Assembly: GCA_963801355.1 (NCBI GenBank)
Contig: CAWDEM010000004.1
Span: 1,312,001-1,376,000 of the forward strand
Source: Ignavibacteriota bacterium
GTDB taxonomy: Bacteria; Bacteroidota; Ignavibacteria; UBA10030; UBA6906
Length of the DNA: 64,000 nucleotides
Direction: 5' to 3'
This document shows, one piece after another, positions 18,941 through 36,328 of the stretch. The notes under the pieces are model-generated. The model saw only the letters and a list, made by a program, of their open reading frames with translations, searched no databases and was not told where the DNA came from. Position 1 is the stretch's first letter; every line of letters begins with the position of its first letter. The translations under genes and the position numbers were made by a program.

Positions 18941-19528
18941 CTATTTCTTCCGTGTCGTCTTCTTTGCCGGTTTTTTCGCCTTGGGCGGCTTCGCCTCTTT
19001 CGGTGGGGGTGTTTCCTTCTTTGTGACGAGCACCTTCCCGAGTTCTGCCTTCAATTTTTCGTAAGAGGCAAAGCGCTCGGTGAAGGCGATCTTCCCGTCT
19101 GAGCGGAGGACGATGATTCTCGGGAGCTTGACGATTTCGTAACTGGAAATGACGTCCGAATCCCGTCCGTACAGCACGGTATAGGGAAGCTTAAAGCTCT
19201 GTGCGTCGGCCTCCACACGACCGCGCATGTCGATCGGGTTGATCGAAAGAATCGAGACGTTTTTGTATTCACTCCAGATCTTTTTGAGAGGCGGAAACTC
19301 CGCCTGGCATTCCCTTCACTTCGACTTCCAGAAATGAAGAATCACTACGCTCTTGCCCGCGTAACTCTGCAGCGTGACGTTCTTGCCCGTTCCCACTGCC
19401 GGCAGGCTGAAGGCCGGCGCTTTGACGCCCGGTGCCAATCCTTCCCCGGCAAAGAGCATGTGTGCGCAGATCGTGAATACGGTAATGGCAAGTATGGTTG
19501 CTGAGCGTCTCATAGATTCCCGGGTCAT
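18941..19528 (-). CDS. exported TlpA/AhpC-like thioredoxin-fold selenoprotein (U-R-E-C); joins ORFs 19316-19528 and 18941-19228
   Basis: Reading through TGA at 19316-19318 gives ...APAFSLP...VILHFWKSK-U-REC-QAEFPPL...KLPRIIVLRSDGKI with no other stop (195 aa). Signal peptide present; SECIS-like hairpin 10 nt downstream. Confidence 0.92.
19289..19305 (-). promoter_or_regulatory. SECIS-like element for UGA 19316
   Basis: AGGCGG[AGTTT]CCGCCT, loop starting at +17 from the UGA. Confidence 0.8.
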
Positions 19529-21822
19529 TTGAGGAGGACCATGCGTTGTGCAAGCATCGTTGTTCCACTGGAGAAGCGGCAGATATATACCCCGGAGCTC
19601 AGCCCCGATGCATCGAACCGGAACCTGTGGTACCCGGCAGACAGTACCTCGTTCGCCAGAGAGGTGATCTCCCGGCCGAGAGCATCAAAGATTGTCAAAC
19701 GGCATAGTGTTTGTACCGGCACGCCGATCTCAATGGTTGTCGTGGGGTTGAAAGGATTCGGATAGTTCTGACGCATGACAAATGTCTCCGGCAGACCTTC
19801 TGCGCGGTCCCGCACGGCGGCAGAACCCGAGAGGTTCAAGCGGTACACACCGCTTCCCTCCGTGCCCGCGTAGAGACGCCTGTTCGTCCGGTCGTACGCC
19901 AGACATGTCGCCCGCACATTGCCGAGGCCGTTGGAAAAGTTGTTCCAGTTCTTCCCCCTGTCTGTGCTCCGCCACACACCACTTGCTGCCCCGGCATAGT
20001 AGATCCCGCTGCTGTCGGGATTGCAGAGCAGCGTGTATGCGTACATATAGCCGGCCGGCACAGTCCAGCTTGAACCGGCGTCGGTGCTTGTATACACGCC
20101 ATTGTTTGTCGTTGCCGCAAGCACGTTTACATTGAAGGGATCGATGACGATTTTCGTGATTGATTCATACTGCTTGCCGAAGGTACTGCTCCCGATCTGA
20201 TTCCACGTGCTTCCGGCATTGGTTGACTTGTATATCCTGCTGTAGGTTGGCCACGTGCTGCCGGAGGCATACACTCCTCCACCGGCATACATGATATTTG
20301 TATTGCTGGCTTGAATAGCCAGGGTCTGCACCTCACCCCCGGCGGTGTCCAAAGCGATGCGCGTCCAGTGTGTTCCGTCGTCTGTCGATTGGTAGACAGC
20401 CATATGGGATGGCTCGGTCGTGCTTGCGGGATTGAGCTTTCCACTGCCACCCTGGTACAATACTGACCCCAGAGCTACGACATAACCGTTATCCATGGAA
20501 TCGTCGAGAGTTATCCAAGTGGACCCGCCACTTGTGCTCCTGAGGAGCGCCGATGTGCCTCACCCACCGCCTTCAAAGGCGTACAGACGCTCCGGGTTGA
20601 CGGGAGAGATGAAGACGTCTGTGACGTTTTCGCATGAATAGAAATCCGGCAGTCTGCTCCACGTTACCGTGGATTGGGTAGCTCCGCTGGTTTTGAAGAC
20701 TCCGCTGTAATTGATCCCTGCGTACATGATCGTGGGTGACGACGGAGCGCACACAAGAGCGGTGACCATAGTGCCATTCAATCCCGTGCTCGTCTGCCTC
20801 CATGATGCACCGGCATTGGATGATCGGAACACTCCTGTTCTGTTGCCGATGAACACGCACGCAGGGGTCGATCCTTCAACGACCAATGGGTCCACGCCGC
20901 TGCCGACAATGCCGCTACTGGAGGTAGTGTCCCAGGTGGCCCCGCCGTCGGTGCTCTTATAGACGCCATAGCTGTACGTCGAGGCGAACATGACGTCCGT
21001 ATTTGGCAGGTAAAATGCAAGCTTCTCGGGCGCCGGGACGTACACTCCAGTCCACGAACTGCCGCCGTTGCTGCTCCTGTAGATTCCCGCTCCGGAGGCG
21101 ACGAAGATCTTTCCTCCGCCGCCCGGGTCGACAAGGATGTCATTCACCATGCCCGGTAGTGTTCCCGTGATGTCACCGAAGACCGAACCGCCGTCTGTAC
21201 TCTTGAAAATCCGGCCATAGATATACGAACCAATAACAACATATCCCCCTGCATAAACGTGTTGGGTGTTCGTTGGATCAACCGCGACAGCGTATCCGTA
21301 GCCGGTTCCGCTCGCAAGCGTGCGTACGGTCCAGTCCGTTCCGCTGTTCGTCGTCCGAAAGTAGGCAAAGGACGATATGGACCCGTCGTAGAAGTAGCCG
21401 GACAGATGGAATGTGGACGGGCTCGCTGGATCCCGCGCCAGATCCTGCGCATAGCAGTTGGTGGGAAGGTTTATCGAGGTCCACGTCCCTCCGCCGTCGG
21501 TGCTGGAGAAGAGAATGGAGTAGGCAACACCATAGACACGTGATGGATTGGAGGGATCCACTTCGAGCATTTGAGGTGTTGAAGGAATGGTCGCTGTGGC
21601 GAACCAATGTTCGCCGTGATCCGTTGTCTTCCACCCGTTCCCCGGATAACTCTGTGTTGCAGCATATAATATACTGGTGTTTGAACGTGACTGCGCGAGT
21701 GCAGTTATGTATCCTCCTTCAGGGCCGACGGATTCCCATCCGGGGGTCTGTCCCGCCATCTCTGGAGGACCCAGCATGACAGGTATCGTCAGACACACCA
21801 GAAACAGCAAATGAGTTTTCAT
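19525..21822 (-). CDS. secreted BNR/Asp-box beta-propeller with T9SS-type C-terminal tail and in-frame UGA (putative Sec421); joins ORFs 20560-21822 and 19525-20496
   Basis: TGA at 20560-20562 is in frame: YAFEGGG-U-GTSALLRSTSGGSTW (an Asp-box repeat) runs into the downstream ORF. Signal peptide is only in the 5' part, QNYPNPFNP tail only in the 3' part. 765 aa. Confidence 0.8.
20516..20548 (-). promoter_or_regulatory. tandem hairpins, candidate SECIS for UGA 20560
   Basis: GCTCC[TCA]GGAGC followed by a perfect CAAGTGG[CGGGT]CCACTTG (loop at +33). Confidence 0.55.
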
Positions 21823-21862
21823 GCGGACCTCTGCTTGATTGTGCCCACCCGCCTCCGGGTGA

Positions 21863-22651
21863 TCAACCGGGAGCGGAGAGCAAATTGCGGATCATTGTGT
21901 ACATTTCGGTAGTACGTTTGTACAGATTGTCTATACGGTACCGGACTACTCCCTTGCGATCAATAATGATAAAAGTGGGTGGCACATTGCCGAAAGAAAT
22001 GCCAACCCGGTATGCGCCGAACAGTGCGCTGGTTGAGTCATAGACAAGCGGGTACGCTACGCCGCTCTGGGTACGGAATGTGCGGAGCCACGTGACTGAA
22101 GATGTGTTGTTCACCCCCACCACCGCAAGACTCTCACGCGGGAAGCTTATGAAGATTTGCCATTGCACAGACGGCAACTCCGTCTGAATGCAATCCATTC
22201 ACGTATGTTCGAAAAAGACGAGGAGAACGACTTTCCCCCTCTGCTTATGCATTTCGAACAGCGAGTCATCAATGGTCCGCACGGTAAAGTCAGGCGCTTC
22301 GTTGTCGAGGAATGGGCCGATCTTTGTCAGGCGCATGAGCAAAGCCGCCACCTCGTTGCGGCGGACTGTAACCATCGTATCCGAGCGGGCGCCCGAGCTG
22401 TCTGCCACGGTGAGCTTGTGCATCCCGGCGACAACTCCATGCAGGGTGCAGGGATTGGGCAATTTCCCCTGAGGAATGTCGTCCAGGGCGACAGAGATTG
22501 AATCAAACACAAGCGTATCCATCGCCGTAACCGTGAGGGTGCCGGTGAACGGTTCGGGCATCCCCGTGGGTGGATCTCCGCAGCCCTTCACCGCAATGGC
22601 ATACGCTGCCCCGCACAGAATGAGAAGCATGCGATAATGCCTGCGCGTCAT
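21863..22651 (-). CDS. lipoprotein: PEGA-like domain + TlpA/AhpC-like selenoprotein domain (U-M-D-C); joins ORFs 22199-22651 and 21863-22198
   Basis: VKGC lipobox; APDFTV...GKVVLLVFFEHT-U-MDC-IQTELP...VPPTFIIIDRKGVVRY; TGA at 22199-22201; 262 aa. Confidence 0.92.
22162..22194 (-). promoter_or_regulatory. SECIS-like element for UGA 22199
   Basis: ATTGCA-TT-CAGACGG[AGTTG]CCGTCTG-TGCAAT: 7-bp upper stem and 6-bp lower stem, loop at +20. Confidence 0.85.
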
Positions 22652-22663
22652 CTTCTCCCTCTC

Positions 22664-23692
22664 CTAGAATGCATAGACAGCTCCAAGCATGTAGGTGTTC
22701 ATCTGGACACCAAGATTGCTGGCATAGTAACGGTATTTTGTGTAGAGCAGCCAGACAGCGGACATTTCACGGTTCAACTGAACGCTGAATGCCCGTGACC
22801 GCATGTTGTCCGGAATGATGATGCCTTCTTCACCCAGGCTCACATTGTCGCTCTTGTTCTGATATAGACGGAATTTCACCCAGAGGGTCGTCGCCCAGTT
22901 CAGGTACTGAGCGACTTCCAGAGCCGGGGCGAGCGAAGAAATCCCCATGGAGTTCGTGTACCAGCGGAGCGAAAGATGCACGGCGGTCTGGGTCGGCAGG
23001 AACTGGGAAAGCCAGACGCTGACGTTGTGTGAATTGAATGAAAACAGATCTCCATTTGCGTTATAGTACACGTATTCCGCCTGGACCGCCGTGGAAAGTG
23101 TCAGGACCTGGCGCGCCTTGAGGCGGAGATTGATTGTACCCATTTTCCCGCCCACCGGACCGGCGTCGGCACCGCGAAAGTAGAACTGGATATCGCCCTG
23201 CACAGAAGTGAGAGCGCTCATATCCCACAGTGCTCCGGTACCGGCTTGAAAGGCCGCAAAGCCACGGGAGTCATATTGAAACTGCGTTGCTGCGATTCCG
23301 ACGACGGTTGAACTCAAGTTCCGGGTATACTTGATCTCGGCCAGGTGCTGCGCTACGTCTTCCTTGATGTCAGAGTACTGGTACTTCACCCCGAGTTGAG
23401 CTGCTTTGCCGACAAGGCGTGTGTATTTGATGAGTGCCCGCTTCTCGGGGAAGTTCGCGATGTACGGCAAGTTCTGCTGGTAACCGGACACGCCGTAGTT
23501 GTAGATGATCGGCTCGGGGTATTCGTACTCCCCATAATCGGCGTATTGAAGCTCAACTTTGAGCTTGCTCTTCAGCTCAAACGAGTCGTCGTAACCCTGT
23601 GAGTAAAGGGACGAAGACACGAGGGCAAGCGCCGGGAGGATGATGGCGACGTGGTACCTGCAGAGCCTATGAATATGTCTCACCTGAGACAT
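22664..23692 (-). CDS. putative outer-membrane beta-barrel protein
   Basis: Signal-like N-terminus, alternating aromatic/hydrophobic beta pattern (KYQY, QFQY, KYRYY), C-terminal ...GAVYAF; ATG at 23692 after GAGGG. Confidence 0.8.
   Translation of the reverse strand: MSQVRHIHRLCRYHVAIILPALALVSSSLYSQGYDDSFELKSKLKVELQYADYGEYEYPEPIIYNYGVSGYQQNLPYIANFPEKRALIKYTRLVGKAAQLGVKYQYSDIKEDVAQHLAEIKYTRNLSSTVVGIAATQFQYDSRGFAAFQAGTGALWDMSALTSVQGDIQFYFRGADAGPVGGKMGTINLRLKARQVLTLSTAVQAEYVYYNANGDLFSFNSHNVSVWLSQFLPTQTAVHLSLRWYTNSMGISSLAPALEVAQYLNWATTLWVKFRLYQNKSDNVSLGEEGIIIPDNMRSRAFSVQLNREMSAVWLLYTKYRYYASNLGVQMNTYMLGAVYAF
23675..23692 (-). promoter_or_regulatory. SECIS-like element for UGA 23703, overlapping the barrel start codon
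   Basis: Perfect ATGTCTC[AGGT]GAGACAT, loop at +18. Confidence 0.8.
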
Positions 23693-23696
23693 GGCC

Positions 23697-23930
23697 CTAC
23701 CCTCAGGTAGGGCAGGCCGCAGCCTCCCCGACGGCGCCGGTACCGTTCTCGATTTGCGAGATATCTTCGTCATTGTCCTGCAGGTTTTTCATGATCGCGC
23801 AATTGACGCGGCTTTCCATCTGCAGCGACTGACGTGACGATACACAGCTGGTGAGAAACGAGGAAAAAAGGAGGGAAATGACGATGAGAAGAATTGGACT
23901 GATGGTGTGTGATTCCCTGCCGCGAGCCAT
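23697..23930 (-). CDS. small lipoprotein selenoprotein ending C-P-T-U-G-stop
   Basis: GGGGAG RBS, hydrophobic signal with LTSC lipobox; ...GCC TGC CCT ACC TGA GGG TAG; SECIS-like hairpin downstream; 77 aa. Confidence 0.82.
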
Positions 23931-23980
23931 AACCACTCCCCTTAGGACCAGGATATGACGGGGGACTCCATCTGGGGGAA

Positions 23981-24009
23981 AAGTTAGGGGAACGAAAGAT
24001 CAATGTCAA
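23981..24009 (-). promoter_or_regulatory. sigma-70 promoter of the selenoprotein operon
   Basis: TTGACA-17 bp-TAACTT on the minus strand, about 50 nt before the lipoprotein start. Confidence 0.65.
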
Positions 24010-24011
24010 CA

Positions 24012-24072
24012 GATTTGGCGAATTTGGGAGGAATTTGGGAGAAATTTTGGGAAGAAATCGGGAGAAACGGGG
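24012..24072. repeat. degenerate ~10-bp repeats (AATTTGGGAG-like)
   Basis: gatttggcg aatttgggag gaatttgggag aaattttgggaag aaatcgggag aaacggg. Confidence 0.55.
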
Positions 24073-24102
24073 GGGAGCACGTCTTCACGATGCGACAGTT
24101 GT

Positions 24103-24159
24103 TTGACTGTGGGCATGTCCTTCACTATCATAGCATAGACTGATCTACCATAGACTGAT
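24103..24159 (+). promoter_or_regulatory. sigma-70 promoter followed by an 11-bp direct repeat
   Basis: TTGACT-17 bp-TATCAT; CATAGACTGAT at 24134 and 24149. Confidence 0.55.
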
Positions 24160-24230
24160 TTGCCTGAGATTGCCCCTGAATTCCAGTCCAGTCCAGTCTC
24201 CTTCTTCCCGGATTACAGACGTGGTGCCAC

Positions 24231-26384
24231 GTGAACACTCTGAATTCCCTCGGTTGCGCGCTCTTTGCGCTCTTCCTCACGGCGGAAACCGGTCTCAGTC
24301 AGTGGGTTCAGGTTGGACCGTCAGGCTTCCTTTCCTGTCTCCTAAAGACCCCCGCAGGGCTCTTTGTCGGCTCCGCGGGCGCCGGCATCTACTTTTCCTC
24401 TGACAATGGCATCTCATGGCGAGGCGCAAATCTTGGGCTCACAAGCCAAAATGTTACCGGCATGACCAATATCGGACAGGATGTCTTTGCCTCGACACGC
24501 GGGGGAGGTGTGCTGCTCACTACAGACAACGGTGCTACTTGGGCTCCAGTCAACTCGATGCTGATCAGTCAGGATGTTGGATGTGTGACAGCTATCGGCA
24601 CTGGAGTCCTGGCAGGACCAACCGGATATGGAGCGTTCTTCTCTCCGGATCGCGGAACGACCTGGCAGCCCTTCGGCAAAGGACTCGCCATGGAAACTGT
24701 GAACGCCTTCTTTTCGAAGGATTCCAGGATTTTTGCGGGGACTATGCAGGGTGTGTACGCAACGTCAGACGGTGGAAAGAATTGGTTTTCCTCAAATGCC
24801 GGTCTCCCCGCCAACGGCCGGGTGACCGCATTCGCGTCGACTGACACACTGATCTTTGCAGGCGTCCACAATGGAGGGGTCTACATCTCTACAGACAACG
24901 GCGTTTCGTGGTCAACTGCCGGCACGGGACTTACCGACAGCAATGTGACGTGCCTGGCGAGCGTTGTTCTCCCCGGGTCGACGGCGCGGAGACTCCTGGC
25001 GGGCACGGCAAGAAGAGGATTGTTTGCATCCACTGATAACGGCGCAAATTGGGCTCCAGTGGATCTCGGACTGTCGAGTCTTCAAGTGGATGCGCTCGCA
25101 TCCGACGGCTCAGTTGTCTATGCGGCGCTGGAGGAAGGAGTGAGAGTCTCGAGTGATGCGGGCCTTCACTGGGGAGACGCCGGAGCGGGTGCGCCTACAA
25201 GAACGGTGATGGGTCTCGGACTCTTCGGAACGAATCTGTATGTCGGCACTAACCGCACTGGTGTCTATGTCACGGCCGACATGGGCAATACCTGGGCTCC
25301 TGCAAACCAGGGCCTGACGGGTTACGACATTTCGGCCATGACTGTTGCGGGTACTACTCTCTTCGTGGGGACGTCCGGGGGAAGACTCTTCCGTCGTGAG
25401 ATGTCTGATTCCAACTGGTTTGCGGCGAGCTCCCAGTTCGCAAATCTGCCCTTCAATGTGCTCGGCGCCGCGGGCAATGTCCTACTTGCCAATCCAGGCT
25501 TTCGTGGAATTCATTATTCCACAGACATTGGCGCCAACTGGCTTTACGGTCAGGGATCGGAAGCCGACCAGAACGGGACATCCTTTCTCTCCTTCGCGGT
25601 GGGCCAGGGTTACATTTTTGCAGGGTCATTGAACTTCGGAGCCTTCCGCTCTGCCGACAATGCTGTCAGCTGGCAACGCAAGAACAACGGCCTGGGCAAT
25701 TTCACCGTGCGCGCGCTCGCCCTGGATGGTTCGCTCCTCTTTGCCGGAACCTCGGCCGGCCTCTTTGTGTCGAGCAACAACGGCGAAACCTGGCAAAGCG
25801 GCAGCACGATGCTGGCCGGCTCGCTGGTGAGGGGCCTCGCGGTCTCCGGCAACACGATCATCGCCAGCACCGGAGACCAGGGCATATGTGTGTCGACAGA
25901 TCATGGCATAACCTGGCAACAGGCCAACCAGGGATTGTCCGGCGCGGCCACAACTCTCGTGTCCTGCGATGGTTTGCTCGTCTATGCTGGTTCGACTCTG
26001 GGTGGGCTTTATCGCCGCTCACTTTCCGAGATGCTCTCTTCTCTTAGTGGCCTCCCGGCGTTGCGAGAGCTCCCGACCGATTTCCTGCTTTGCCAGAACT
26101 ACCCCAACCCGTTCAATCCAACGACCACGATCCGTTATGGCTTACCCAATCGTTCGCAAGTCGCTCTGATAGTCTTCAACACGCTCGGTCAACGAGTGGC
26201 ACAGCTGGTTGATGGCGAGAAGGATGCAGGGTATCACGAAGTGCAGTTTGACGCATCAGGACTCTCATCAGGCGTGTACCTGTATCGGATGCAGGTCCGC
26301 CCTATGGACTCCGCCATCGGGCGGGACTCCAAGAGCGGACCTGGGAGCTATGTGGACGCGAGGAAGCTGGTCTTGTTACGCTGA
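24231..26384 (+). CDS. secreted BNR-repeat beta-propeller protein with T9SS-type C-terminal sorting domain
   Basis: Signal peptide, more than ten S/TxDxGxxW repeats, QNYPNPFNPTT...RKLVLLR. Confidence 0.9.
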   Translation: MNTLNSLGCALFALFLTAETGLSQWVQVGPSGFLSCLLKTPAGLFVGSAGAGIYFSSDNGISWRGANLGLTSQNVTGMTNIGQDVFASTRGGGVLLTTDNGATWAPVNSMLISQDVGCVTAIGTGVLAGPTGYGAFFSPDRGTTWQPFGKGLAMETVNAFFSKDSRIFAGTMQGVYATSDGGKNWFSSNAGLPANGRVTAFASTDTLIFAGVHNGGVYISTDNGVSWSTAGTGLTDSNVTCLASVVLPGSTARRLLAGTARRGLFASTDNGANWAPVDLGLSSLQVDALASDGSVVYAALEEGVRVSSDAGLHWGDAGAGAPTRTVMGLGLFGTNLYVGTNRTGVYVTADMGNTWAPANQGLTGYDISAMTVAGTTLFVGTSGGRLFRREMSDSNWFAASSQFANLPFNVLGAAGNVLLANPGFRGIHYSTDIGANWLYGQGSEADQNGTSFLSFAVGQGYIFAGSLNFGAFRSADNAVSWQRKNNGLGNFTVRALALDGSLLFAGTSAGLFVSSNNGETWQSGSTMLAGSLVRGLAVSGNTIIASTGDQGICVSTDHGITWQQANQGLSGAATTLVSCDGLLVYAGSTLGGLYRRSLSEMLSSLSGLPALRELPTDFLLCQNYPNPFNPTTTIRYGLPNRSQVALIVFNTLGQRVAQLVDGEKDAGYHEVQFDASGLSSGVYLYRMQVRPMDSAIGRDSKSGPGSYVDARKLVLLR
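26295..26340. repeat. in-frame ~45-bp palindromic insertion in secretion tail (copy 1)
   Basis: GTCCGC..TGGA..CGCC ATCG GGCG..TCCA..GCGGAC; near-identical copy at 28389-28433. Confidence 0.7.
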
Positions 26385-26657
26385 CCTTGGCGCACAATGA
26401 TTCATGGCCCGGCATTGTCGGGCCCGTCCACTTTGTCTCCATCCAGTGAACCGCTTCGAACGGTGGAGTATATTGCGCGCGGAATCACTTGCGAGGAAGA
26501 CGCAATTCTCCGTCAGGCTCCCCGTCACCCAACGGCACGGAATACCGCGAATACGGTATTGAAATGCCCAGCAATTAAACCGTATATTTCCAGGAATGCC
26601 GCACCAGAACAACACACAGGCAGGCCAAACCCAATTCATCAACTGGAGGATACTGTC

Positions 26658-28478
26658 ATGATGCTCATGCGTCTAGTCGCGGTGCTTATCGCATGCGTGC
26701 TGTTGTGGGCGGTCTCTGCGCCGGCGCAGTCTCTTGAGGAGCTGCAAAACGACGAGATCAACGTGGCGACACGTCCATCCAATGATGTCCAGCAGCTGGC
26801 AAAGGAATTGTCGCAAGCCCGAAAAGCCGGTGATTACACCCGTGCAAGGGAGCTGGAGCGCATACTCTTCACCGCCATGCCCACTCTTCCCGCGGATGCC
26901 GCGCCGCTGATCTACGGGGGCAGCTACGACATGCCGGAAAACACGGCGGGTCCTCTCTGGGGCAACGACGTGAAGATCTACACCGGCCCCGTATGGTCAA
27001 ACGGCAAACGCCAGCTTGCCATCGATGCAGATACCCTCAAAGGCATCTATATCGGTATCAATGCAAAATACCAAGACACGCTCTCTCAAATCCTCGTTTA
27101 TCGTTCGACGAACGAGGGAAAGAACTGGACCTTCTTGACCAGATTCTATTCGACCGGTCAGGCATTCCAGTCGTTCGATATGTGCGTCACCGATACGGCT
27201 GGTGGTAAGTGGCTACTGGGATTCTCGCTTGTTCTCAAGACTGACAAGAGCGCAGCCGGCGGCGGTCATCTCTATTGGGGGAGCGTACTGAGCGACGGCT
27301 CGGATTGGCGGTACAAACTCATTGCCCCTGCGAGCCCTTCCACCAACTTCAGGAACCCAAGCATCTGCACGGATGGCACATACTACCCTCCCGGGACGAC
27401 CTATCACTACGTTGCCGCGGAATTTGTAAACCCTGCGACGGATGTGCCGCGTGGCCTGTTTGTCACCCGCACGACGGACTGGGGGAAGAACTGGGTCACC
27501 CCCGATAGTTCCATCAAAAACGTCCAGGAATCGACGCCCGTCATCGCCATCGACTGGAGCACGACCCCGGACAGTCTGTGCCTTGCGTTTACCCGGTTTA
27601 CAACTCCGAGTCGCGAAATCCGCGCTGCCCGCAATTCGATCACATTCTCCGGTGGATGGACAATCACCTATTTGGTGACCAAGACGGATGACTATGATCC
27701 TTCCATGGCAATTGACCCGATCCGGGGCAATGCTATCATCACCTATACTCGTGCCACGGGCGCACCGACGTACAACGATATTCTGTACCTCTACACTACA
27801 GATCTCTTCAAAACATTCAGCCGGGACAGCATCGCCGCAAGCACGGCAGTTGAGGAACTCAGCTCGGTGAGCTATGCGCCGTGGAAGACCGGTTACTATT
27901 GGAGGGTGGCATATCGCTCATCTCTCGGCACTGACACCATTTACTACAAAGCGGTCATGGACAAGCTTACGGGATTCTACACAACCAAGCCTACTGATGT
28001 GAGCCAGTATCAACCTTCGACACTTATCGCGCCGGTCGTTGGATTCGATAGAGACATCGGAGGAACAGATTACCGCGGCAATTGCGCTTACGTCGGCTAC
28101 GGGCCTCAAAATGTATATTTCGATGCGGTCGACATGGTGCTGGATGTCCCCATCGAGGAAGGCGTTCCTGCAGCATATGCACTTCACCAGAACTACCCCA
28201 ACCCGTTCAACCCGACGACGACCATCAAGTACGAGTTGCCCAAGTTGTCGGAAGTGACTTTGGGTGTGTATGACATGCTCGGTCGTGAGGTATCGGTGCT
28301 GGTGAATGACAGGAGGGATGCGGGAGTTCATGAAGCGAAGTTTGACGGAGCAGGGCTGTCAAGCGGGATGTATTTCTATCGGATGCAGGTCCGCCCTCTG
28401 GAATCCGCCATCGGGCGTGACTCCAAGAGCGGAGCAGGAAACTTCATTCAGACGCGCAAGCTGCTATTGTTGAGATGA
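26658..28478 (+). CDS. secreted protein with Asp-box repeats and T9SS-type C-terminal sorting domain
   Basis: GGAGG RBS, signal peptide, RSTNEGKNW and RTTDWGKNW, QNYPNPFNPTT...RKLLLLR. Confidence 0.9.
   Translation: MMLMRLVAVLIACVLLWAVSAPAQSLEELQNDEINVATRPSNDVQQLAKELSQARKAGDYTRARELERILFTAMPTLPADAAPLIYGGSYDMPENTAGPLWGNDVKIYTGPVWSNGKRQLAIDADTLKGIYIGINAKYQDTLSQILVYRSTNEGKNWTFLTRFYSTGQAFQSFDMCVTDTAGGKWLLGFSLVLKTDKSAAGGGHLYWGSVLSDGSDWRYKLIAPASPSTNFRNPSICTDGTYYPPGTTYHYVAAEFVNPATDVPRGLFVTRTTDWGKNWVTPDSSIKNVQESTPVIAIDWSTTPDSLCLAFTRFTTPSREIRAARNSITFSGGWTITYLVTKTDDYDPSMAIDPIRGNAIITYTRATGAPTYNDILYLYTTDLFKTFSRDSIAASTAVEELSSVSYAPWKTGYYWRVAYRSSLGTDTIYYKAVMDKLTGFYTTKPTDVSQYQPSTLIAPVVGFDRDIGGTDYRGNCAYVGYGPQNVYFDAVDMVLDVPIEEGVPAAYALHQNYPNPFNPTTTIKYELPKLSEVTLGVYDMLGREVSVLVNDRRDAGVHEAKFDGAGLSSGMYFYRMQVRPLESAIGRDSKSGAGNFIQTRKLLLLR
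28389..28433. repeat. in-frame ~45-bp palindromic insertion in secretion tail (copy 2)
   Basis: GTCCGCCCTCTGGAATCCGCCATCGGGCGTGACTCCAAGAGCGGA. Confidence 0.7.
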
Positions 28479-28495
28479 GCTATAGCCAGTAATTG

Positions 28496-28539
28496 AACAA
28501 AAATAGCCCGGGCAGAGATGTCCGGGCCTTTGTTTGTTT
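28496..28539. terminator. bidirectional intrinsic terminator between convergent genes
   Basis: A-rich tract, GCCCGGGCA-GAGA-TGTCCGGGC, then CTTTGTTTGTTT. Confidence 0.7.
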
Positions 28540-28666
28540 CGAGAGGAACATCGTCCACCGTCCTTTCGAGTGTCGGACGGTGAAAGTGAGCGCACACTAA
28601 ATCGCACACTCCGAGTGCAATTTCCTGTGCAGCGCGTGAGGTGGGCAAGAACAAAAGCGGTGAAAA

Positions 28667-28765
28667 TGGCGGGGACGGGTGGGGATCGAACCCACCTCCC
28701 GGGCTTTTCAGTCCGGGACAACGGATTTGAAGTCCGCGGGGACCACCAGGTTCCCTTTCATCCCC
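28667..28765 (-). tRNA. selC: tRNA-Sec (anticodon UCA)
   Basis: 99 nt; GCGGA-CTTCAAA-TCCGT anticodon arm, TGGT D-loop, long variable arm with GAAA loop, GTGGG-TTCGATC-CCCAC, G73 and encoded CCA; directly after selD. Confidence 0.96.
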
Positions 28766-28825
28766 GATCACAACGGCCCAATTTCGCGATTCCCCCGGAG
28801 AATTCCAAGACCCTCCAGGTCACGA

Positions 28826-29914
28826 CTATCCCTCCAGTTTCAAGAAGACTGGCCTTCCTTCCGGTGATTGCATCAAGGGAATGACCTCTCCCACTTGACG
28901 CGCCGCAGTATCTCCAGCCTCGTGCAATGCATGTACTACTTCATGGACGCGATCTGACGGGACCGCCGCAAGGAGTCCGCCGGATGTCTGCGGATCGGTC
29001 ATCAACCTGAACTGGGCCCCGGATACCGCATCCGAGCGCATTGTGTGGGGTTCGACGTACTGATCCGATGTGATCTTGTGAGCTGATGGCGATACATCCA
29101 TGAGCGCAAAAGTTGATTCAAAACAAGGCAGGAGCGAGGCGTGGAAGACCAGAGTCACGCCGGCGTTCCGGGCGATGGGCAACGCGTGACCGAGCAATCC
29201 GAATCCCGTAACGTCCGTCATCGCGCTGACCTCGAACTTCTCGAGGACCCCGGAGGCGTACATATTCAGACGCTGCATGCTTGTGGCAAACTCTTCATAT
29301 TGTGCGATGGTCAGGCGATCTTTCGAAAGTGCCTCGGCATAGATGCTCGTGCCAAGCGATTTTGTGAGAATCAGCGCGTCACCGGCACGCGCGTGTGCGT
29401 TGGTCACAACCCGGTCAGGATGGATCGTGCCGGTCACGCTCATGCCGTAGAAAATCTGCTCCTGTTCCATAGAGTGGCCGCCCATGAGGACGACGTGGGC
29501 TTCCTGGAGTTTTTCCGCTGCGCCGGTGAGAAGCTTCGCTATGACTTCGGTGGGTATCAGCTTTGCGGGATACGCCAGGATATTCATCGCCGTCAGTGGC
29601 CGTCCGCCCATGGCCCACACATCGGAAAGACTGTTGGCAGCGACGATGCGCCCGAAAGTCCGCGCGTCGTTCACCACCGGTTGAAAGAAATCCAGTGTTT
29701 GCACCAGCGCCAGTTCCGGCGTGAGACGGTATACACCCGCGTCGTCCATGGTATCCATGTCGACCAGGATATCCGGTGACGATATCCGGGGAAGGCGGGA
29801 AAGAATCCCTGCCAACCTGGCAGGGGAGATTTTGCCCGCTCACCCAGCGCAGGCGGCGTAGGAGAGCAGTCGTATCTCCTTGCCACCCGGCATGTAGGGA
29901 GCCGTTTCTATCAT
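28826..29914 (-). CDS. selD: selenophosphate synthetase, Sec-containing (C-A-G-U-A-G-K); start 29914 or 29893
   Basis: IRLLSYAACAG-U-AGKISP with TGA at 29840-29842; DDAGVY, TLDFF, ANSLSDVWAMGG, DVTGFGLLGH, DPQTSGGLL. Confidence 0.96.
29807..29825 (-). promoter_or_regulatory. SECIS element of selD
   Basis: CCCTGCC[AGGTT]GGCAGGG, loop at +22, with AATC/GATT lower stem. Confidence 0.88.
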
Positions 29915-30732
29915 GGCGGACATCCAATCCTATTATTGAGGGGATGTACAGCGAACGTGTTGTCCTTCCACTCCTCTGCAAGCAGTGCAGCGCCGAGTGC
30001 GCCGGTGAATTCCGGATCATCGGGGACCAGAATCGTCCGCCCGGTAACCGATTGAAGCGCGGCCACCACTCCCGGATTGCGGGCAACGCCGCCGGTGAAG
30101 ATCACCTGGTCTTCCCATCCAAGCCGGCCAGCCATGCCGATCACACGGCGCGCGACGGACTGAAACACGCCATTGAGGATGGAGGAGGCGGAGATACCCT
30201 GATGGAGCAATCCCACGATCTCGGTCTCGGCGAATACCGCGCACATCGAAGTGATCTCGCAAATTGCCGTGGTGGAAAGAGCGAGCCGGCCGGTATCCTC
30301 CACCGGCACCGAGAGCGTTCGTGCGACGGTCTCCAGAAATCGCCCGGTCCCCGCGGCACAGCGGTCGTTCATCGCGAACTCCAGCACCGAGGCCCGGGCA
30401 TCCAGCCGCATCATCTTGGAATCCTGGCCGCCGATATCAATTACCGTGCGAGCATCCGGAAAGCATGCGTGTACACCGGTCGCGTGACACCGGATTTCGG
30501 AATATGTTCCATCGGCGGCGGTGAAGTAGTGCCGGCCGAGACCCGTGGCAATGGTGCACTGCACGTCCTGCCGCTGAATGCCGTGGGTCTCCAGAACGCG
30601 CTGGTACAGCAATCCGGCATTCTCTCCGGGCGACGGACCGGATGGACACATCCCCCGGCCAAGCATCACGCCGTCTTCCAGAAGCACCACCTCGATTGAG
30701 GTTGAGCCGATGTCAATGCCCGATGTCAACAT
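29911..30732 (-). CDS. ASKHA-fold [4Fe-4S] ATP-dependent activase (HgdC/BadF/DCCP-R type)
   Basis: GIDIGSTS, ATGLGR, IDIGGQDSK, MNDRCAAGTGRFLE, SMCAVFAETE, FTGGVARN. Confidence 0.92.
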   Translation of the reverse strand: MLTSGIDIGSTSIEVVLLEDGVMLGRGMCPSGPSPGENAGLLYQRVLETHGIQRQDVQCTIATGLGRHYFTAADGTYSEIRCHATGVHACFPDARTVIDIGGQDSKMMRLDARASVLEFAMNDRCAAGTGRFLETVARTLSVPVEDTGRLALSTTAICEITSMCAVFAETEIVGLLHQGISASSILNGVFQSVARRVIGMAGRLGWEDQVIFTGGVARNPGVVAALQSVTGRTILVPDDPEFTGALGAALLAEEWKDNTFAVHPLNNRIGCPP

Positions 30733-32008
30733 GAGTCTTGCTGTGCTCGTGGAGCACCTCGCTAAACGATTCCAGGCGCACGGAGAGTCTGTCCAGATCC
30801 TCGTACGAATAGTCTGTCACAATGGTAAGCGAAGGCACAGATCGTTTGCCGAGTTCCCTGTCAAGCGCCCGCGCCTCAATATTGTATGCATGACAAAATG
30901 AGAGAATGTGATGCACTACGCCTTCAATGTGGTACATGTCGAGAATCTGCCGGATGTTGTCCACACGCTCGCTGTTGGGCGAAAAGCACGCACAGTCAAT
31001 GGCGAAGTACCTGTCGGCAATCGCATCCAGCAGGCCGTCTATGTCACGAGGAGATTCATCGACCGGGTCCCGGAAGTACCGCATACCCGTGCATGTTTCG
31101 TCGGCAACGATTCGCATGCCGTGCTGTTCCACCGCGAAATGGACTTTTGCATAGCCGAGGGGTGACGGAGATCCGGCCACAAGAATCCGCGGGCCACGGT
31201 GCGGGTAGGCCGGGACTTCTCGCTGGACGCGGTCGTTGAGCTCATCCAGGAGTTCCTGTGCAATACGGATGAAGGCGGTCGGGTCCATCGCGAGGGCTGC
31301 CTGAGAGACCAGCAGGGCATCCAGTCCGGACAGGGGAGGCTCTTCGTTTTTCCGGAGTGCGTTGATGTCCTGAAGGACCCTCCTGCGTTTATTCACAAGT
31401 GCAACTGACTCCCGGAGGGTTTCACAGGTAATCGTCGTGCCACTCAGTTGTTCAATGAATTGCCGGAACTCGCGCACTTCAGAGCGCCAGAGCTCTTTGT
31501 CCAGAGGATTCTTTTTCTGGGGCACTTCGAGGACACGAAAGCCGAGGAGATCCCAGGCCTTCTTCTTAGCATCGCAAGTTGTTTCACCGACTACGGCATC
31601 CTTGAGGTTCTTGTAGGGACAGGTTCCGCTGAATGCCATGCCAAACGTTGACCGGATCAGCGGGCAGATATCCCGCGGGAACATTTTGTCCGCGTAGTCC
31701 ACCGGCCAGTTGCTGCCGCCGCAGAGGGGTATGGGGATGACACCTGCCGCAAAGGCGATTTCGTCCGGCACATAGATGCAAAAAGTTCCGATGGATTTGC
31801 TGCCCGCGCTTCTCTGCGCGGCGATTTCCGCTACGCGTGCGCCATGGCTGGCGTAAAACGCCTCGTCGAACAATGCCATGGCAGACGGCCGCCGCTCCGC
31901 AGCACCAAACGTTCGCTTGTGCAGCGCGGAGTTGTAGGCCTCCAGACGGTCATGCAGCTCGAGATTGACACCCACAGATGCCAGCAAGCTTCGCAATTCC
32001 TGTCCCAT
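30713..32008 (-). CDS. 2-hydroxyacyl-CoA dehydratase superfamily protein, single-chain double-cubane-cluster reductase type
   Basis: GTFCIYVPDE, LCGG, PRDICPLIRS, CPY, GETTCDAKKK, ETCTG, IDCACFSPN, FCH; adjacent activase; TGATG overlap with selB. Confidence 0.85.
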   Translation of the reverse strand: MGQELRSLLASVGVNLELHDRLEAYNSALHKRTFGAAERRPSAMALFDEAFYASHGARVAEIAAQRSAGSKSIGTFCIYVPDEIAFAAGVIPIPLCGGSNWPVDYADKMFPRDICPLIRSTFGMAFSGTCPYKNLKDAVVGETTCDAKKKAWDLLGFRVLEVPQKKNPLDKELWRSEVREFRQFIEQLSGTTITCETLRESVALVNKRRRVLQDINALRKNEEPPLSGLDALLVSQAALAMDPTAFIRIAQELLDELNDRVQREVPAYPHRGPRILVAGSPSPLGYAKVHFAVEQHGMRIVADETCTGMRYFRDPVDESPRDIDGLLDAIADRYFAIDCACFSPNSERVDNIRQILDMYHIEGVVHHILSFCHAYNIEARALDRELGKRSVPSLTIVTDYSYEDLDRLSVRLESFSEVLHEHSKTHVDIGH

Positions 32009-33906
32009 CAAAGTCCCTTCAGCACGCGCACATCTTCGTGCCGCTCGGTGAACCCATTCCTGTCCAGGTATTCCAGCAGGGGAACTACATACTTGCGTGT
32101 CATTGCCAGATGCTGCCGGAGCTCACTGGTTGTGCCCTTGCCATGGATGCGCAGGTACTCGCCCAGACGTTTTTGTGCCTCTGTGATGCCGTTCCTGTGC
32201 ATCAACAGGCCCTCTTCGAGGTGAATCAGATCCCCGCATTCCGTGATGTGTGTGACCAACTTCTCGGCGCCCTTCCCCAGTTCGGCCACAATTTCCCCGG
32301 TATCAGGTGGTGTCAGCAGATTCGTGAGGTACTTCTGCAGAATCATGTCCCTGAGTCTTTTCTGGTCGGCGGAGAGGGATACGGTGTGCCCTTCACAAGC
32401 GAGCTGCTCTCCATGTTTGACGATACGTGATTCTTTCAGGAGTTCGTCTACGATGATTGCGAGGAGCCGCTTGTCAATGGCCGGTTTGATGCGAGAAGCC
32501 AATTCGGGGGCGGGGACACCCACGCGGAGAGGGTTCTCCTGATGAAAACGCGTCAGCGCATCCAGCACGTGCGTGCGGAGGGTCAGCTTGTTGCTGAGGG
32601 CAAACCACGTCTTGCCTTCGAGGCAGAGCACGCAACGGCGCTCCTCGAGGACGTGGAGATACTGCAGGCATGTCTCCAGAGGGATCGCTGCTGTCCTAGC
32701 AAGCTCAGCTGCGGTTACAGGTGCAACGGCAAATCGCTGGAGTTGCTGCAACACATGTTCTGCTGGGTCGCCTTTGACCGCCTGCTGCAGGCGTTCAAGC
32801 ACATCGCCCTGGAATCTCCGGTGTTTTCCGGGCCTGACGTCCAGGACCGTCCCGCCTCCAAGAGTTTGAAGAGGCGAATAACTCCTGAGGACATACCGGT
32901 CTCCATCGTCGGCCACGATGGGCCGCTCAAAGTGGAGCTGGACAAAACCCTCCTTCCCGGGCTTCAGCTCTTCCTGGTCGAGAAGGAGGACCCGTGCGAT
33001 GACTTCCGTAGTCCCCAAATGGATGCGGACGCGCGTGCGGTGCTGCAACGGCCCCGGTGCAGTGGCGAGGTAGAGAAGATGAGCATCCACCATGGACGTC
33101 GGGTGGTAGTATCCCGGGGTCCCAAGCACGTCGCCGCGTTCCACAACTTCACGTTCCAGCCCTTGCAGATTGACTGCCGTGCGAAGCCCAATGCTGCTTT
33201 CCTGGACGGTCTGATCGTGGACCTGGATTCCCCGAACGCGAAGAGGTCTGCCGATGGGGAGGAGTTCAACCGTGTCATCCACGCGGATACTGCCCGAAGC
33301 GATCGTTCCCGCGACTACCGTCCCGAAGCCCTTGATGGAGAAGACTCTGTCGATGGGCATCCGGAAGACCCCTTTGTCGGTCCGCTGGCGGACCAACCCG
33401 GCTTCCCGGAGGATGGCGCGGTGCAGCTCGTCTATGCCCTCTCCGGTCACGGCGCTCACCCTGTACAGAGGAGCTCCGCCGAGGAAAGTACCCTTCACCA
33501 GCTGCGCAATATCGGCGCTGACCAGGTCCAGCCACTCCGGTGCCACAATGTCCACCTTGTTCAGCGCTATCAGCCCGCGGGGAATCTTCAGGAGACGGAG
33601 GATTTCCAGATGCTCCCGGGTTTGAGGCATGACGCCGTCATCCGCCGCAACGACAAGAAGGGCAAAATCCACCCCGGTCACACCGGCCACCATGGTTTTG
33701 ACGAACCGCTCGTGTCCCGGGACGTCGATGATGGCCACCGAGTCTCCCAGGAATGCGAACCCGAGGTCGGTGGTCATCCCGCGTTCCTTCTCCTCTTTCA
33801 GGCGGTCCGTATCGATGCCGGTGAGCCTTTTGACAATTGCAGTCTTTCCGTGGTCGATATGTCCCGCCATGCCCATGACTACATGTCGTGTGTGAGGGCT
33901 ACCCAT
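32008..33906 (-). CDS. selB: selenocysteine-specific elongation factor
   Basis: [30 protein letters not shown]-terminal winged helix [13 protein letters not shown]. Confidence 0.97.
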
Positions 33907-35305
33907 GGTGCACGACTTCCTGAAATGCCTTGGCAACGAGCTGCACGTCATCGTCGGCAATCGTTCTGCAGTCGAGCAGAAGTGATTGATCCCGTATGCG
34001 TCCGATGACCGGAGTGCTTGACAGGCGGAGCTCACGGGCAAGGCCGTCGGGCGACAGGCCCTCGATGGTGCACGCGACTACTGATGTCGGGAGGGTGGCT
34101 GCGGCGAGCGATCCGCTGCCTACTTCGGCGGTATCTTGTTCCACAGAACATTTCCCGCGGCTCCCAAGAATCGGGGTGAGGAGATCAAGCAGGTGCACAG
34201 CGCGGGCTTTCACGGTATCCTGTGACGCGGTGAGGGAACGGAACACAGGGTGCTCCCGCGCCAGACTGCCTTCATCAAGAAACAGACGGAGTGTCGCCTC
34301 CAGCACTGCAAATGTCATCTTGTCACATCGCAACACCCTGATGAGCTGGTTGCTTTTGAGACGGTCTACAAGTGCACGCTTACCGAGGATGATGCCGCAC
34401 TGGGGCCCGCCAAGAAGCTTGTCGCCACTGAAGCACACGAGGTCGGCCCCGCCGGCAATCGACTCCTGAACCATCGGTTCATGAGGCAGACCCCAGCGGC
34501 GGAGGTCAAGAAGGGCGCCACTGCCGAGGTCGTCGATGGCGATGAGGTTGTGCTGGTGTGCGAGCTCGGACAATTCGTGTATCGAAACCTGGCTGGTGAA
34601 GCCGACGATATGATAGTTGCTCTGGTGAACTTTCAGTATCACTGCGGTTTCGGGGGAGACGGCGGCCCGGTAGTCTTTAAGATGGGTACGATTCGTTGTG
34701 CCCACCTCAACAAGTCGTCCGCCGCTGCGTCGGAGGACATCAGGTATGCGGAAAGAGCCTCCGATCTCCACCAGCTCACCGCGTGACACAATGACTTCAC
34801 GCCCCTCCGCAAACGTGTTCAGTACCAGAAGTGTGGCCGCTGCGTTGTTATTTACGACAACGGCCGCTTCTGCTCCGGTGATCTTCCGGAGCAGATGCTC
34901 GACACTCCGGTAGCGGTCGCCGCGTTTGCCGGTGTCGAGATCCAGTTGCAGAGTGCAGTAGCTGCGGACTGCATCTGTCAGGGCGCGCTGCGCGCTGCGT
35001 GCCAGCGGGGCGCGCCCGAGGGCTGTATGAAGAATTACGCCGGTCGCATTGACGGCCTGCCGGACTCCCGGCAGGAGATTGCGTTGAGCCCGGTCCATGA
35101 TCTCGCCCAGGATCGCATCGTAGGAACCTACTGTTTGCAGGTGTCCGTCGCGGATGCGCTCGCGAAGACTCTCGAGGTATGTGCGGATTTCATCTGCCAC
35201 AAGTTCACGCGGATAGTGTTCCAGCAGAGGAGCCAGTCGCCCATCCTCGAGGAGGAGATCAACCTTGGGCAGCTGTTGAAACAGATCGTTCCGGGCCTCG
35301 CTCAT
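33899..35305 (-). CDS. selA: L-seryl-tRNA(Sec) selenium transferase
   Basis: NATGVILHTALGRAP, VNNNAAA, SRGELVEIGGSFRIP, EVGTTNRT, DLGSG, FSGDKLLGGPQ. Confidence 0.97.
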   Translation of the reverse strand: MSEARNDLFQQLPKVDLLLEDGRLAPLLEHYPRELVADEIRTYLESLRERIRDGHLQTVGSYDAILGEIMDRAQRNLLPGVRQAVNATGVILHTALGRAPLARSAQRALTDAVRSYCTLQLDLDTGKRGDRYRSVEHLLRKITGAEAAVVVNNNAAATLLVLNTFAEGREVIVSRGELVEIGGSFRIPDVLRRSGGRLVEVGTTNRTHLKDYRAAVSPETAVILKVHQSNYHIVGFTSQVSIHELSELAHQHNLIAIDDLGSGALLDLRRWGLPHEPMVQESIAGGADLVCFSGDKLLGGPQCGIILGKRALVDRLKSNQLIRVLRCDKMTFAVLEATLRLFLDEGSLAREHPVFRSLTASQDTVKARAVHLLDLLTPILGSRGKCSVEQDTAEVGSGSLAAATLPTSVVACTIEGLSPDGLARELRLSSTPVIGRIRDQSLLLDCRTIADDDVQLVAKAFQEVVHHG

Positions 35306-36197
35306 GAGAAATGCCCCAGGTGACGGAGACATGTTTGCACACCGTACACTTCAAGCAACGGATACAGTCGGGCGAATTCGGATCATCCGAAATTTTGATG
35401 TCCACCGGGCAGACCTTCACGCAGAGATCGCAGTCCGCGCATTTGCCTTCGACATGCATGCGCATAAGACTGACACGATTGAAGTAGGCATAGATTGCGC
35501 CCAGCGGGCAGAGTGCGCGGCAGAAAGGTCGTTTGATCAGGATGAACAAGACGAGGAAGATGCCGAGAATAGACAACTTCAGGACATAGAGCCATCCCAC
35601 CATATCGGGTTCGATCACCGGGGCTCCCAATGCAGGATCGACAGGGTTCCAGAGCATCCAGGGAATCCCGGCGATGAGTGTCCCCCAGGGGCAGATGCGG
35701 GAGAACCAGTGGTCCTCTGTGAGCAGGGGGAGGAGAATTGCGAGGACGGCGAGCGAAAGAAACTTGCCGGATTTGAAGAATCGGGGCAGGCGTAACTTCA
35801 CACTCGGGATCTTGTGGATGGTGTCCTGAAGCCAGCCGAAGGGACAGAGCCATCCACACGCCGCGCGTCCGAACAACATGCCAATTGAACCGAGCATGCC
35901 GAGCAGGAAGAACGGCACTTGCCTGATTGCGACAAACGACTGCAGGATACCGATGGGGCAGGCCATGAAGGCTGACGGACAGGCGTGACAATTCAGAAAG
36001 GGCACACACCCCTGTTTGAGGGGGCCCGCATAGATCTGCTTGGTGAACGCGACGGGGTAGTAACCGTTGGAGAGGATGAGGCCGATGCCCACAACAATGA
36101 AGAGCCGGATCTTACGGAGTCTGGAGTAGAGCGGCCTGCTCTCTCTGGTTGTTGCGGGATGTTCCGGGATCAACTGATCCCGATGCAGTCCAGTCAT
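35259..36197 (-). CDS. membrane-bound 4Fe-4S protein (NapH/RdxA-like); start ATG 36197 or TTG 36173
   Basis: CVPFLNCHACP..CPIG, GRAACGWLCPFG, FCRALCPLG, CADCDLCVKVCP, CIRCLKC..C; several TM helices. Confidence 0.88.
   Translation of the reverse strand: MTGLHRDQLIPEHPATTRESRPLYSRLRKIRLFIVVGIGLILSNGYYPVAFTKQIYAGPLKQGCVPFLNCHACPSAFMACPIGILQSFVAIRQVPFFLLGMLGSIGMLFGRAACGWLCPFGWLQDTIHKIPSVKLRLPRFFKSGKFLSLAVLAILLPLLTEDHWFSRICPWGTLIAGIPWMLWNPVDPALGAPVIEPDMVGWLYVLKLSILGIFLVLFILIKRPFCRALCPLGAIYAYFNRVSLMRMHVEGKCADCDLCVKVCPVDIKISDDPNSPDCIRCLKCTVCKHVSVTWGISHERGPERSVSTAAQG
36165..36182 (-). promoter_or_regulatory. SECIS-like element for UGA 36194
   Basis: Perfect CGGGATC[AGTT]GATCCCG, loop at +19. Confidence 0.85.
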
Positions 36198-36328
36198 AGC
36201 GTGGCGCTTTCGATGCGGATCAACGTCAAGTCTCCGCCCACGATTCCCAGCGCCAGCAACGTGATGAAGAGCAGCATCAGGACGATGCGCACTCCCCAGT
36301 GCACGAGCAAAAGGCCGGCCATCTTCAT
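36170..36328 (-). CDS. 52-aa single-TM selenoprotein ending U-L-D-C-I-G-I-S (CD1871A-like CxxC family, Sec form)
   Basis: ...GCC ACG CTA TGA CTG GAC TGC ATC GGG ATC AGT TGA. LxLxCIGI tail upstream of a membrane 4Fe-4S gene; SECIS-like hairpin present. Confidence 0.85.

Follow-up and report, generated by a model that had tools for sequence, protein, structure and literature searches.

The minus-strand gene at positions 23697..23930 of the window (the whole stretch of 64,000 nucleotides analysed here) very probably encodes a 77-residue lipoprotein that ends in Cys-Pro-Thr-Sec-Gly and is a genuine CxxU-Gly-stop selenolipoprotein. The protein probably represents a new, uncatalogued selenoprotein family within the known class of C-terminal ("star") bacterial selenoproteins. 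The CxxU-Gly-stop reading was proposed in a first-pass annotation of the DNA, and is supported by hairpins of the same type in selD and two thioredoxin-fold genes, by covariation in the hairpin stem, and by the Sec machinery. The features of the gene are as follows.

23697..23930, minus strand: small lipoprotein gene read with UGA as Sec; 77 residues with the end ...GTGAVGEAAACPTUG, then TAG
23844..23846, minus strand: Cys29 of the lipobox L-T-S-C, judged by eye and predicted to carry the lipid; present in 43/43 aligned sequences
23712..23714, minus strand: Cys73, the partner of the proposed Sec in CxxU; invariant in both alignments, including the most distant members
23703..23705, minus strand: UGA, the proposed Sec76 codon; TGA in 26/26 homologous loci
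23697..23702, minus strand: Gly77 codon GGG, then TAG as the proposed true stop; GGG and a stop are both present in 26/26 loci

Predicted product of the small gene

The coding sequence starts with ATG at 23930, and there is an alternative in-frame GTG at 23936. If the TGA is read as a stop codon, the open reading frame has 75 amino acids with the C-terminal end ...GTGAVGEAAACPT, followed by TGA GGG TAG. The 3' end is formed of the codons TGC CCT ACC (23714..23706), TGA (23705..23703), GGG (23702..23700), and TAG (23699..23697), which confirms, on the minus strand, the TGC CCT ACC TGA GGG TAG order given in the first-pass annotation. At the N-terminus, a hydrophobic stretch is followed by an L-T-S-C lipobox. 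The residue preceding the lipobox cysteine is mostly Gly or Ser in the family, and the cysteine itself is invariant in 43 of 43 sequences. Thus, by motif inspection, the protein has the signal peptide and the lipobox with an invariant cysteine that are characteristic of bacterial lipoproteins. The mature form of the predicted lipoprotein has 48 residues. The structure model (pLDDT 58) contains a helix followed by coil from residue 58 to the C-terminal end. The tail is unstructured in this single-chain model, yet it is the best-conserved part of the protein in the alignment of 43 sequences, and its earlier description as a flexible linker does not hold.

That the small open reading frame is not a gene is barely credible. 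Its length of only 75-77 codons and the low-confidence fold would suit such a reading, as would the absence of an assigned family: the Pfam search returned no domain in the protein, and the search against NCBIfam release 20 gave no match at E <= 1 except for a chance hit of 0.47. However, the non-gene reading does not account for 42 homologues with a conserved lipobox cysteine and an invariant tail, for the variation of third codon positions while the protein sequence is kept, or for the position upstream of a barrel gene that is kept in 26 loci. Judged from the sequences, this pattern of conservation already contradicts the non-gene reading.

Conservation of the UGA codon

All 42 small-protein homologues from the databases, most of which have 74 residues, are annotated with the end ...ACPT. 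This is as expected if the Sec codon was called as a stop, and it bears out the earlier remark that gene callers would miss the read-through. The tail G-x-G-A-x-G-E-A-x-A-C-P-T is invariant in the 42 homologues. Homologous DNA was taken from the relative genome G007, seven species-representative genomes, and 18 metagenome contigs, with some of the loci being duplicates. Including the window, tail-encoding DNA is available from 26 loci, which are related to each other and not independent.

All 26 homologous loci (18 distinct sequences) carry TGA directly behind the Thr codon, and in none is it replaced by TAA or TAG. Homologues with TAA or TAG after CPT, which the first-pass annotation had named as grounds for abandoning the Sec reading, were looked for and not seen. 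The UGA is thus conserved at the same codon in the orthologues, as expected of a recoded codon. The next codon is GGG in 26/26 loci and is followed by a stop, which is TAG in 22 loci, TAA in two, and TGA in two. Upstream of the TGA, the Thr codon is ACC, ACG, ACA, or ACT, and the Pro codon is CCT or CCC. In the same loci, the neighbouring TlpA-like gene may end with TGA, TAG, or TAA, in contrast to the fixed TGA of the small gene. The variation of the second stop of the small gene is a weak argument, because the variants are purine transitions, and three of the four combinations are stops. In a crude set of open reading frames from the genome, TGA forms 59% of the stops of long open frames, and a second in-frame stop at codon +2 follows 35 of 1821 TGA ends.

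When 1.84 billion cluster representatives were searched with a profile, 10 hits reached E <= 0.001, one of which, an unrelated 615-residue repeat protein, was set aside. Among the nine relevant representatives, seven end with C-P-T, the most distant one ends with C-Y-S, and one is a frameshifted copy. The more distant full-length cluster representatives end with C-P-T in six of seven cases, and the seventh ends with C-Y-S. Since the homologues and distant representatives end with either C-P-T or C-Y-S, a cysteine is always positioned three residues before the called stop. A Cys-for-Sec form (CPTCG) was seen in none of the 42 homologues, in none of the nine cluster representatives, and not among longer proteins. 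Because no Cys-form homologue was found, the Sec/Cys pair that is usually used to recognize a selenoprotein is not seen here. The CxxC-G Cys forms suggested in the first-pass annotation were likewise not seen. A search for longer or fused forms of the small protein found none, and the family profile gave only weak signal-peptide hits in 400 evenly sampled genomes of the phylum.

The frame past the UGA consists of one codon only, the invariant GGG, including its third base, and then the kept stop, a pattern that could also be produced by a constraint at the level of RNA. The invariant third base points to such a constraint in these sequences. With its position 8 nt ahead of the barrel ATG, TGAGGG could act as a Shine-Dalgarno sequence, and hence as a ribosome-binding site.

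SECIS-type hairpin downstream of the UGA

Two hairpins can be drawn in the region of the UGA and of the start of the barrel gene.

23675..23692, minus strand: SECIS-type hairpin B, ATGTCTC-AGGT-GAGACAT, supported by the genome scan and covariation; the barrel gene has its ATG in the 5' arm
23694..23713, minus strand: hairpin A, GCCCTACC-TGAG-GGTAGGGC, around the UGA; perfect in the window sequence, not conserved

Hairpin B has a perfect 7-bp stem and the loop AGGT. The stem begins 10 nt after the TGA, and the loop begins at the 18th base after the TGA, with 17 nt in between, in agreement with the perfect AGGT-loop hairpin at +18 of the first-pass annotation. In its position closely 3' of the UGA and in its small, G-containing apical loop, hairpin B agrees with what is expected of a bacterial SECIS element. 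The 101-nt region around the UGA folds better than all 200 shuffled sequences (z -2.94). The folding energy of hairpin B, -10.1 kcal/mol, is unremarkable and was equalled by nine of 200 shuffles. Rfam at permissive thresholds identified no SECIS family at the small gene, the TlpA-like site, or the other SECIS of the window, and is therefore uninformative. Hairpin A was rejected as a selected structure: the changes in homologues are mostly disruptive, and pairs 12-23 and 15-20 are broken in 8 and 10 of the 18 distinct sequences, respectively.

Both strands of the 4.8-Mb genome were scanned for strict hairpins, with at least six perfect pairs and the loop AGKT(N), and for relaxed hairpins of 5 bp with the loop RGKN. 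The whole genome contains 33 strict hairpins, and in 16 of them the loop is preceded, at 15-24 nt, by a TGA. Of these TGA-linked hairpins, five fall within a 17-kb stretch of the window, all on the minus strand; their loops are near 36175, 29818, 23685, 22179, and 19299. Among the 165,631 TGA triplets in the genome, a strict hairpin is present at a distance of 15-22 nt in 16 cases and a relaxed one in 230. The TGA ends of open frames of at least 300 codons carry a strict hairpin in 0/1821 cases and a relaxed one in 2/1821. Ordinary TGA stops in this genome essentially never carry a SECIS-type hairpin. The rarity of such hairpins, both among all TGA triplets and at the ends of long frames, indicates that hairpin B is more than a chance occurrence.

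Covariation was analysed in an alignment of 25 of the 26 loci, which yielded 18 distinct sequences; the locus L022, which is cut short, was excluded. In hairpin B, the core of five inner pairs is maintained in 17 of the 18 distinct sequences, whereas the two outer pairs are poorly kept. The inner pairs in the 18 distinct sequences are as follows.

Pair 36-41: CG 18
Pair 35-42: UA 17, unpaired 1
Pair 34-43: CG 9, UA 8, unpaired 1
Pair 33-44: UA 13, CG 3, UG 1, unpaired 1
Pair 32-45: GC 17, GU 1

The stem covaries at two pairs, and the observed score was reached by none of 500 shuffles, a figure that can be inflated by kinship among the sequences. The compensating changes alter residues 2 and 5 of the barrel protein non-conservatively (Ser, Phe, or Leu; Arg or Lys). 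Because they are non-conservative for the protein, the sequence changes point to selection on the RNA. The loops of the homologous hairpins are AGGT, AGGC, AGGG, AGTT, and GGGC, with no change in the second G. One locus (L014:2971..3030) retains TGA GGG TAG and, of the hairpin, the 5' arm with the loop, but its 3' arm is different, with no comparable fold. Decay of this copy, an assembly variant, and an alternative structure are all conceivable.

Selenocysteine machinery and other selenoprotein genes

The window contains the genes of the Sec machinery together with additional selenoprotein genes.

28667..28765, minus strand: tRNA-Sec gene with the anticodon TCA; 67.9 bits at a cut-off of 47
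28826..29923, minus strand: selD, itself a selenoprotein gene (CAG-U-AGK) with UGA at 29840..29842; TIGR00476, 326.7 bits
32008..34041, minus strand: selB; SelB-wing domains and a SelB beta-barrel domain
33899..35332, minus strand: selA; SelA match of 494.8 bits
21863..22651, minus strand: TlpA/ResA-like lipoprotein selenoprotein (FFEHT-U-MDC) from the same operon as the small gene; UGA 22199..22201, SECIS 22168..22186
18941..19513, minus strand: second thioredoxin-fold selenoprotein (FWKSK-U-REC) with the hairpin AGGCGG-AGTTT-CCGCCT; has a counterpart in locus L016

The genes of tRNA-Sec, selD, selB, and selA are positioned 5-12 kb from the small gene, so that all four components looked for in a Sec-using genome, tRNA-Sec, SelA, SelB, and SelD, are encoded within the window. 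In selD, the hairpin CCCTGCC-AGGTT-GGCAGGG begins 13 nt after the in-frame UGA. The TlpA-like gene is split by ordinary calling of open reading frames into 150 and 111 codons, and forms a single thioredoxin-fold lipoprotein with UGA read as Sec. Its hairpin CAGACGG-AGTTG-CCGTCTG begins 12 nt after the in-frame TGA, and the UGA with the hairpin AGACGG-AGTTG-CCGTCT is kept in seven of the eight loci L010-L017; L015 gave no such row. The hairpins of the small gene, selD, and the TlpA-like gene have in common a 7-bp stem, a loop starting with AG(G/T)T, and a spacer of 10-13 nt.

The operon was found in eight other genomes, and seven of them contain a tRNA-Sec gene over the cut-off. The exception is the fragmented genome G061, which has no tRNA-Sec hit over the cut-off and has SelA. 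SelA is present in all four operon genomes tested, including G061. In two of the other genomes, the tRNA-Sec gene is located in the same locus as the operon. Among sampled genomes of the same order, tRNA-Sec was found in 0/100, which suggests that the Sec island was acquired horizontally. The barrel gene was found in one of 60 relatives.

The selenium island, 18941..36400 on the minus strand, includes selA, selB, a homologue of double-cubane-cluster reductase, selD with its Sec codon, tRNA-Sec, and five TGA codons with AGKT-loop hairpins. The region behaves as a transferable selenium island. One of its hairpins belongs to a candidate gene for a 52-residue membrane protein (36170..36328, minus strand) that ends with ...ATL-U-LDCIGIS and is a second near-C-terminal Sec candidate. 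The hairpin, CGGGATC-AGTT-GATCCCG, spans the candidate's own TGA stop, and the gene is positioned directly upstream of that of a NapH/MauN-like ferredoxin membrane protein. The NCBIfam search gave no match for the 52-residue candidate. Another in-frame TGA of the window, at 20560..20562 between two open reading frames with BNR repeats, was not counted as having a SECIS, since it is followed by a 5-bp stem with the loop UCA only.

Two frames with in-frame TGA codons are located outside the window (G000:C8), both on the minus strand. The one near 1117883, of 219 + 594 codons, contains its TGA in the context ..GHT-U-YGGE.., accompanied by a strict SECIS-type hairpin. The sequence YRSTDNGTTW after the TGA looks by eye like a BNR/Asp-box repeat, and it is possible that the frame is a further selenoprotein gene. 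The one near 1291971 is a 93-codon frame ending with ..HHP-U-CEECIS, with a 6-bp AGTT-loop hairpin; it is possibly a third C-terminal Sec candidate, or a chance occurrence.

Overlap of the hairpin with the start of the barrel gene

The gene downstream of the small lipoprotein gene encodes an outer-membrane protein.

22664..23692, minus strand: outer-membrane beta-barrel gene, 342 aa; 16 strands in the AlphaFold2 model, pLDDT 78

The model of the barrel has a C-terminal Phe, and its best matches in the PDB are PgaA, PelB, and porins. A few of the 79 barrel homologues carry PF12094. The ATG of the barrel gene at 23692 is positioned 4 nt (GGCC) after the TAG of the small gene, and the gap between the two genes is 4-13 nt.

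A natural control is provided by locus L016, which contains selD with its Sec codon, the barrel gene, the TlpA-like selenoprotein gene, and the gene of the second thioredoxin-like selenoprotein, but from which the small lipoprotein gene is absent. The barrel gene of L016 starts with a plain signal peptide, without a SECIS-type hairpin, which indicates that hairpin B goes with the UGA of the small gene and not with the barrel. The hairpin-encoded M-x-Q start is present in 39 of the 79 database homologues of the barrel, and many of the others start with ordinary signal peptides, which is consistent with the hairpin being tied to the small gene.

The main rival to the insertion of Sec is a reading in which the UGA is a real stop, the protein ends with CPT, and hairpin B is a SECIS-like, SelB-binding element that regulates the initiation of barrel translation according to the supply of Sec-tRNA. 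This reading is unlikely. The position of the barrel AUG within hairpin B, directly after the possible Shine-Dalgarno sequence GAGGG, speaks for it, together with the missing Cys-form homologue and the precedent of E. coli selAB, for which an excerpt of PMC13449736 describes a SECIS-like repressor element. However, the regulator reading explains neither why the codon is TGA in 26/26 loci while the next in-frame stop and the stop of the TlpA-like gene vary, nor why a stop follows exactly one codon later, nor why even distant members keep a cysteine at the position three residues ahead of the UGA. It is also at odds with locus L016, where the barrel gene without the small gene is also without the hairpin.

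Even less probable, to the point of being very unlikely, is that the UGA is a real stop and that hairpin B and the invariant TGAGGGTAGGGCC provide ordinary translational coupling, with a Shine-Dalgarno sequence and a stem masking the start codon, and no link to selenium. Stems that mask start codons are common, and the gap of 4-13 nt and the GAGG located 8 nt before the barrel ATG agree with such coupling. Nevertheless, hairpin B matches the hairpins behind three in-frame Sec codons in the window in stem length, loop, and distance from the UGA, such hairpins are nearly absent elsewhere in the genome, and the operon occurs only in Sec-using genomes, whereas none of the 100 sampled genomes of the same order has tRNA-Sec. 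Recoding of the UGA as Sec remains the preferred interpretation.

Proposed mechanism of Sec insertion and its implications

According to the proposed recoding mechanism, a ribosome positioned at the UGA 23705..23703 would have hairpin B, which starts 10 nt downstream, at its mRNA entrance. The AGGU loop of the hairpin would be presented to SelB carrying Sec-tRNA(Sec). Sec would be inserted at the UGA, Gly would be added next, and translation would end at the UAG, 4 nt before the barrel AUG. Since hairpin B is positioned past the UAG, the SECIS would lie beyond the small gene's own stop, among the opening codons of the barrel gene. The mature small protein may hang from the membrane into the periplasm, where its conserved unstructured tail could form a reversible selenenylsulfide between Cys73 and Sec76. 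The order of the genes suggests that the small protein may work with the co-transcribed 16-strand barrel and the TlpA-like UxxC lipoprotein. The same gene order would be consistent with a role of the trio in an envelope thiol/selenol redox relay or in a relay handling metals or metalloids.

A broader reading, put forward only tentatively, is that the SECIS serves two genes, and that the lipoprotein with its CxxU-Gly tail, the barrel, and the TlpA-like UxxC protein form an all-selenium envelope module that is carried on the island together with the Sec machinery. If this is true, the translation of the barrel would be coupled to the insertion of Sec, because hairpin B contains the barrel AUG, 4 nt after the true stop of the small gene. 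The barrel would then be translated efficiently only by ribosomes that had inserted Sec and reached the UAG, and its output would depend on the supply of selenium and be matched in amount to the selenolipoprotein. The redox or selenium/metalloid-handling module would be a previously undescribed one, carried on a horizontally transferred island.

Selenoprotein finders depend on a Cys homologue and coding conservation past the UGA. The small gene offers neither, and is therefore invisible to them. A genome-specific SECIS signature in combination with conservation of the type of stop codon can recover genes that add only Sec-Gly past the UGA. The small lipoprotein would add a new family of envelope selenoproteins, and the island would combine, in a compact form, the Sec machinery with at least five candidate selenoprotein genes, although the lineage otherwise rarely uses selenocysteine.

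Comparison with known systems

The catalogued bacterial families with C-terminal Sec are UXX-star 1 and 2 (NF041114, NF041211), KCU-star/DUF466 (NF033934), and SaoC (NF040734), a Cys-Sec-COOH protein, as listed in an excerpt of PMC13188914. The same excerpt proposes a metal-binding or redox-ligand role for the "star" selenoproteins. Like members of these families as described there, the protein from the window is small, has Sec within the last few residues, and is truncated by ordinary gene calling, and its SECIS must be at or beyond the stop of the gene. If the UGA is recoded, the Sec is penultimate and thus within the last three or four residues, as the definition of the "star" class demands. 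Unlike the "star" families, the small protein has no sequence relationship to them and no match to the family HMMs among the NCBIfam models, its CxxU-G-stop tail is carried by a lipoprotein, and the start codon of the following gene falls within its SECIS. No paper on the small lipoprotein family was found in the literature searched, which included excerpts of PMC13188914, PMC12013277, PMC2398784, and PMC13326102, with the star-defining publications of Haft and Gwadz 2023 and Haft and Tolstoy 2025 being outside the search.

The first-pass annotation compared the tail with the C-terminal arm of animal thioredoxin reductase, and the comparison stands for the architecture, with a penultimate Sec followed by Gly in an unstructured tail, but not for the motif, which is CxxU and not a vicinal CU, or for the reductase domain, which the small protein does not have. 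Like the Gly-Cys-Sec-Gly tail of thioredoxin reductase, the small protein would carry its Sec on a flexible C-terminal arm, next to which a Cys is available to form a selenenylsulfide. Unlike thioredoxin reductase, it has the tail CPTUG instead of GCUG and no pyridine nucleotide-disulfide oxidoreductase or flavoprotein domain (no Pfam hit), so that it is not a member of that family, and it is predicted to be a 48-residue mature lipoprotein of the cell envelope. Arner et al. reportedly placed, in 1999, the engineered SECIS for TXNRD1 after the stop codon. According to an excerpt of PMC10840350, a bacterial SECIS element is used to make rat TXNRD1 in E. coli.

A SelB-type hairpin at a translation start has been described in the E. 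coli selAB 5' UTR, where, in the same excerpt of PMC13449736 as cited above, the SelB-binding SECIS-like repressor element is located 3 nt from the selA Shine-Dalgarno sequence. Hairpin B resembles this element in its position. However, the selAB element has no upstream UGA to recode, whereas hairpin B has an invariant UGA at a recoding distance.

Hairpin B resembles the canonical bacterial SECIS of the E. coli fdhF type in being a stem-loop behind the UGA with a guanosine in its small loop; in hairpin B, this loop is AGGU and is positioned 17 nt after the UGA. The spacing in the minimal fdhF element is 11 nt. A bacterial SECIS is recognized by a stem-loop directly 3' of the UGA whose apical loop is small and includes a guanosine (excerpt of PMC1088965). 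Bacterial SECIS elements are stated, in the excerpt of PMC13188914, to be within the coding regions of selenoproteins. Unlike these canonical elements, hairpin B is located outside the selenoprotein's own frame, in the next gene. Hairpin B would thus show that a bacterial SECIS can occur in nature outside its own frame, overlapping the start of the following gene.
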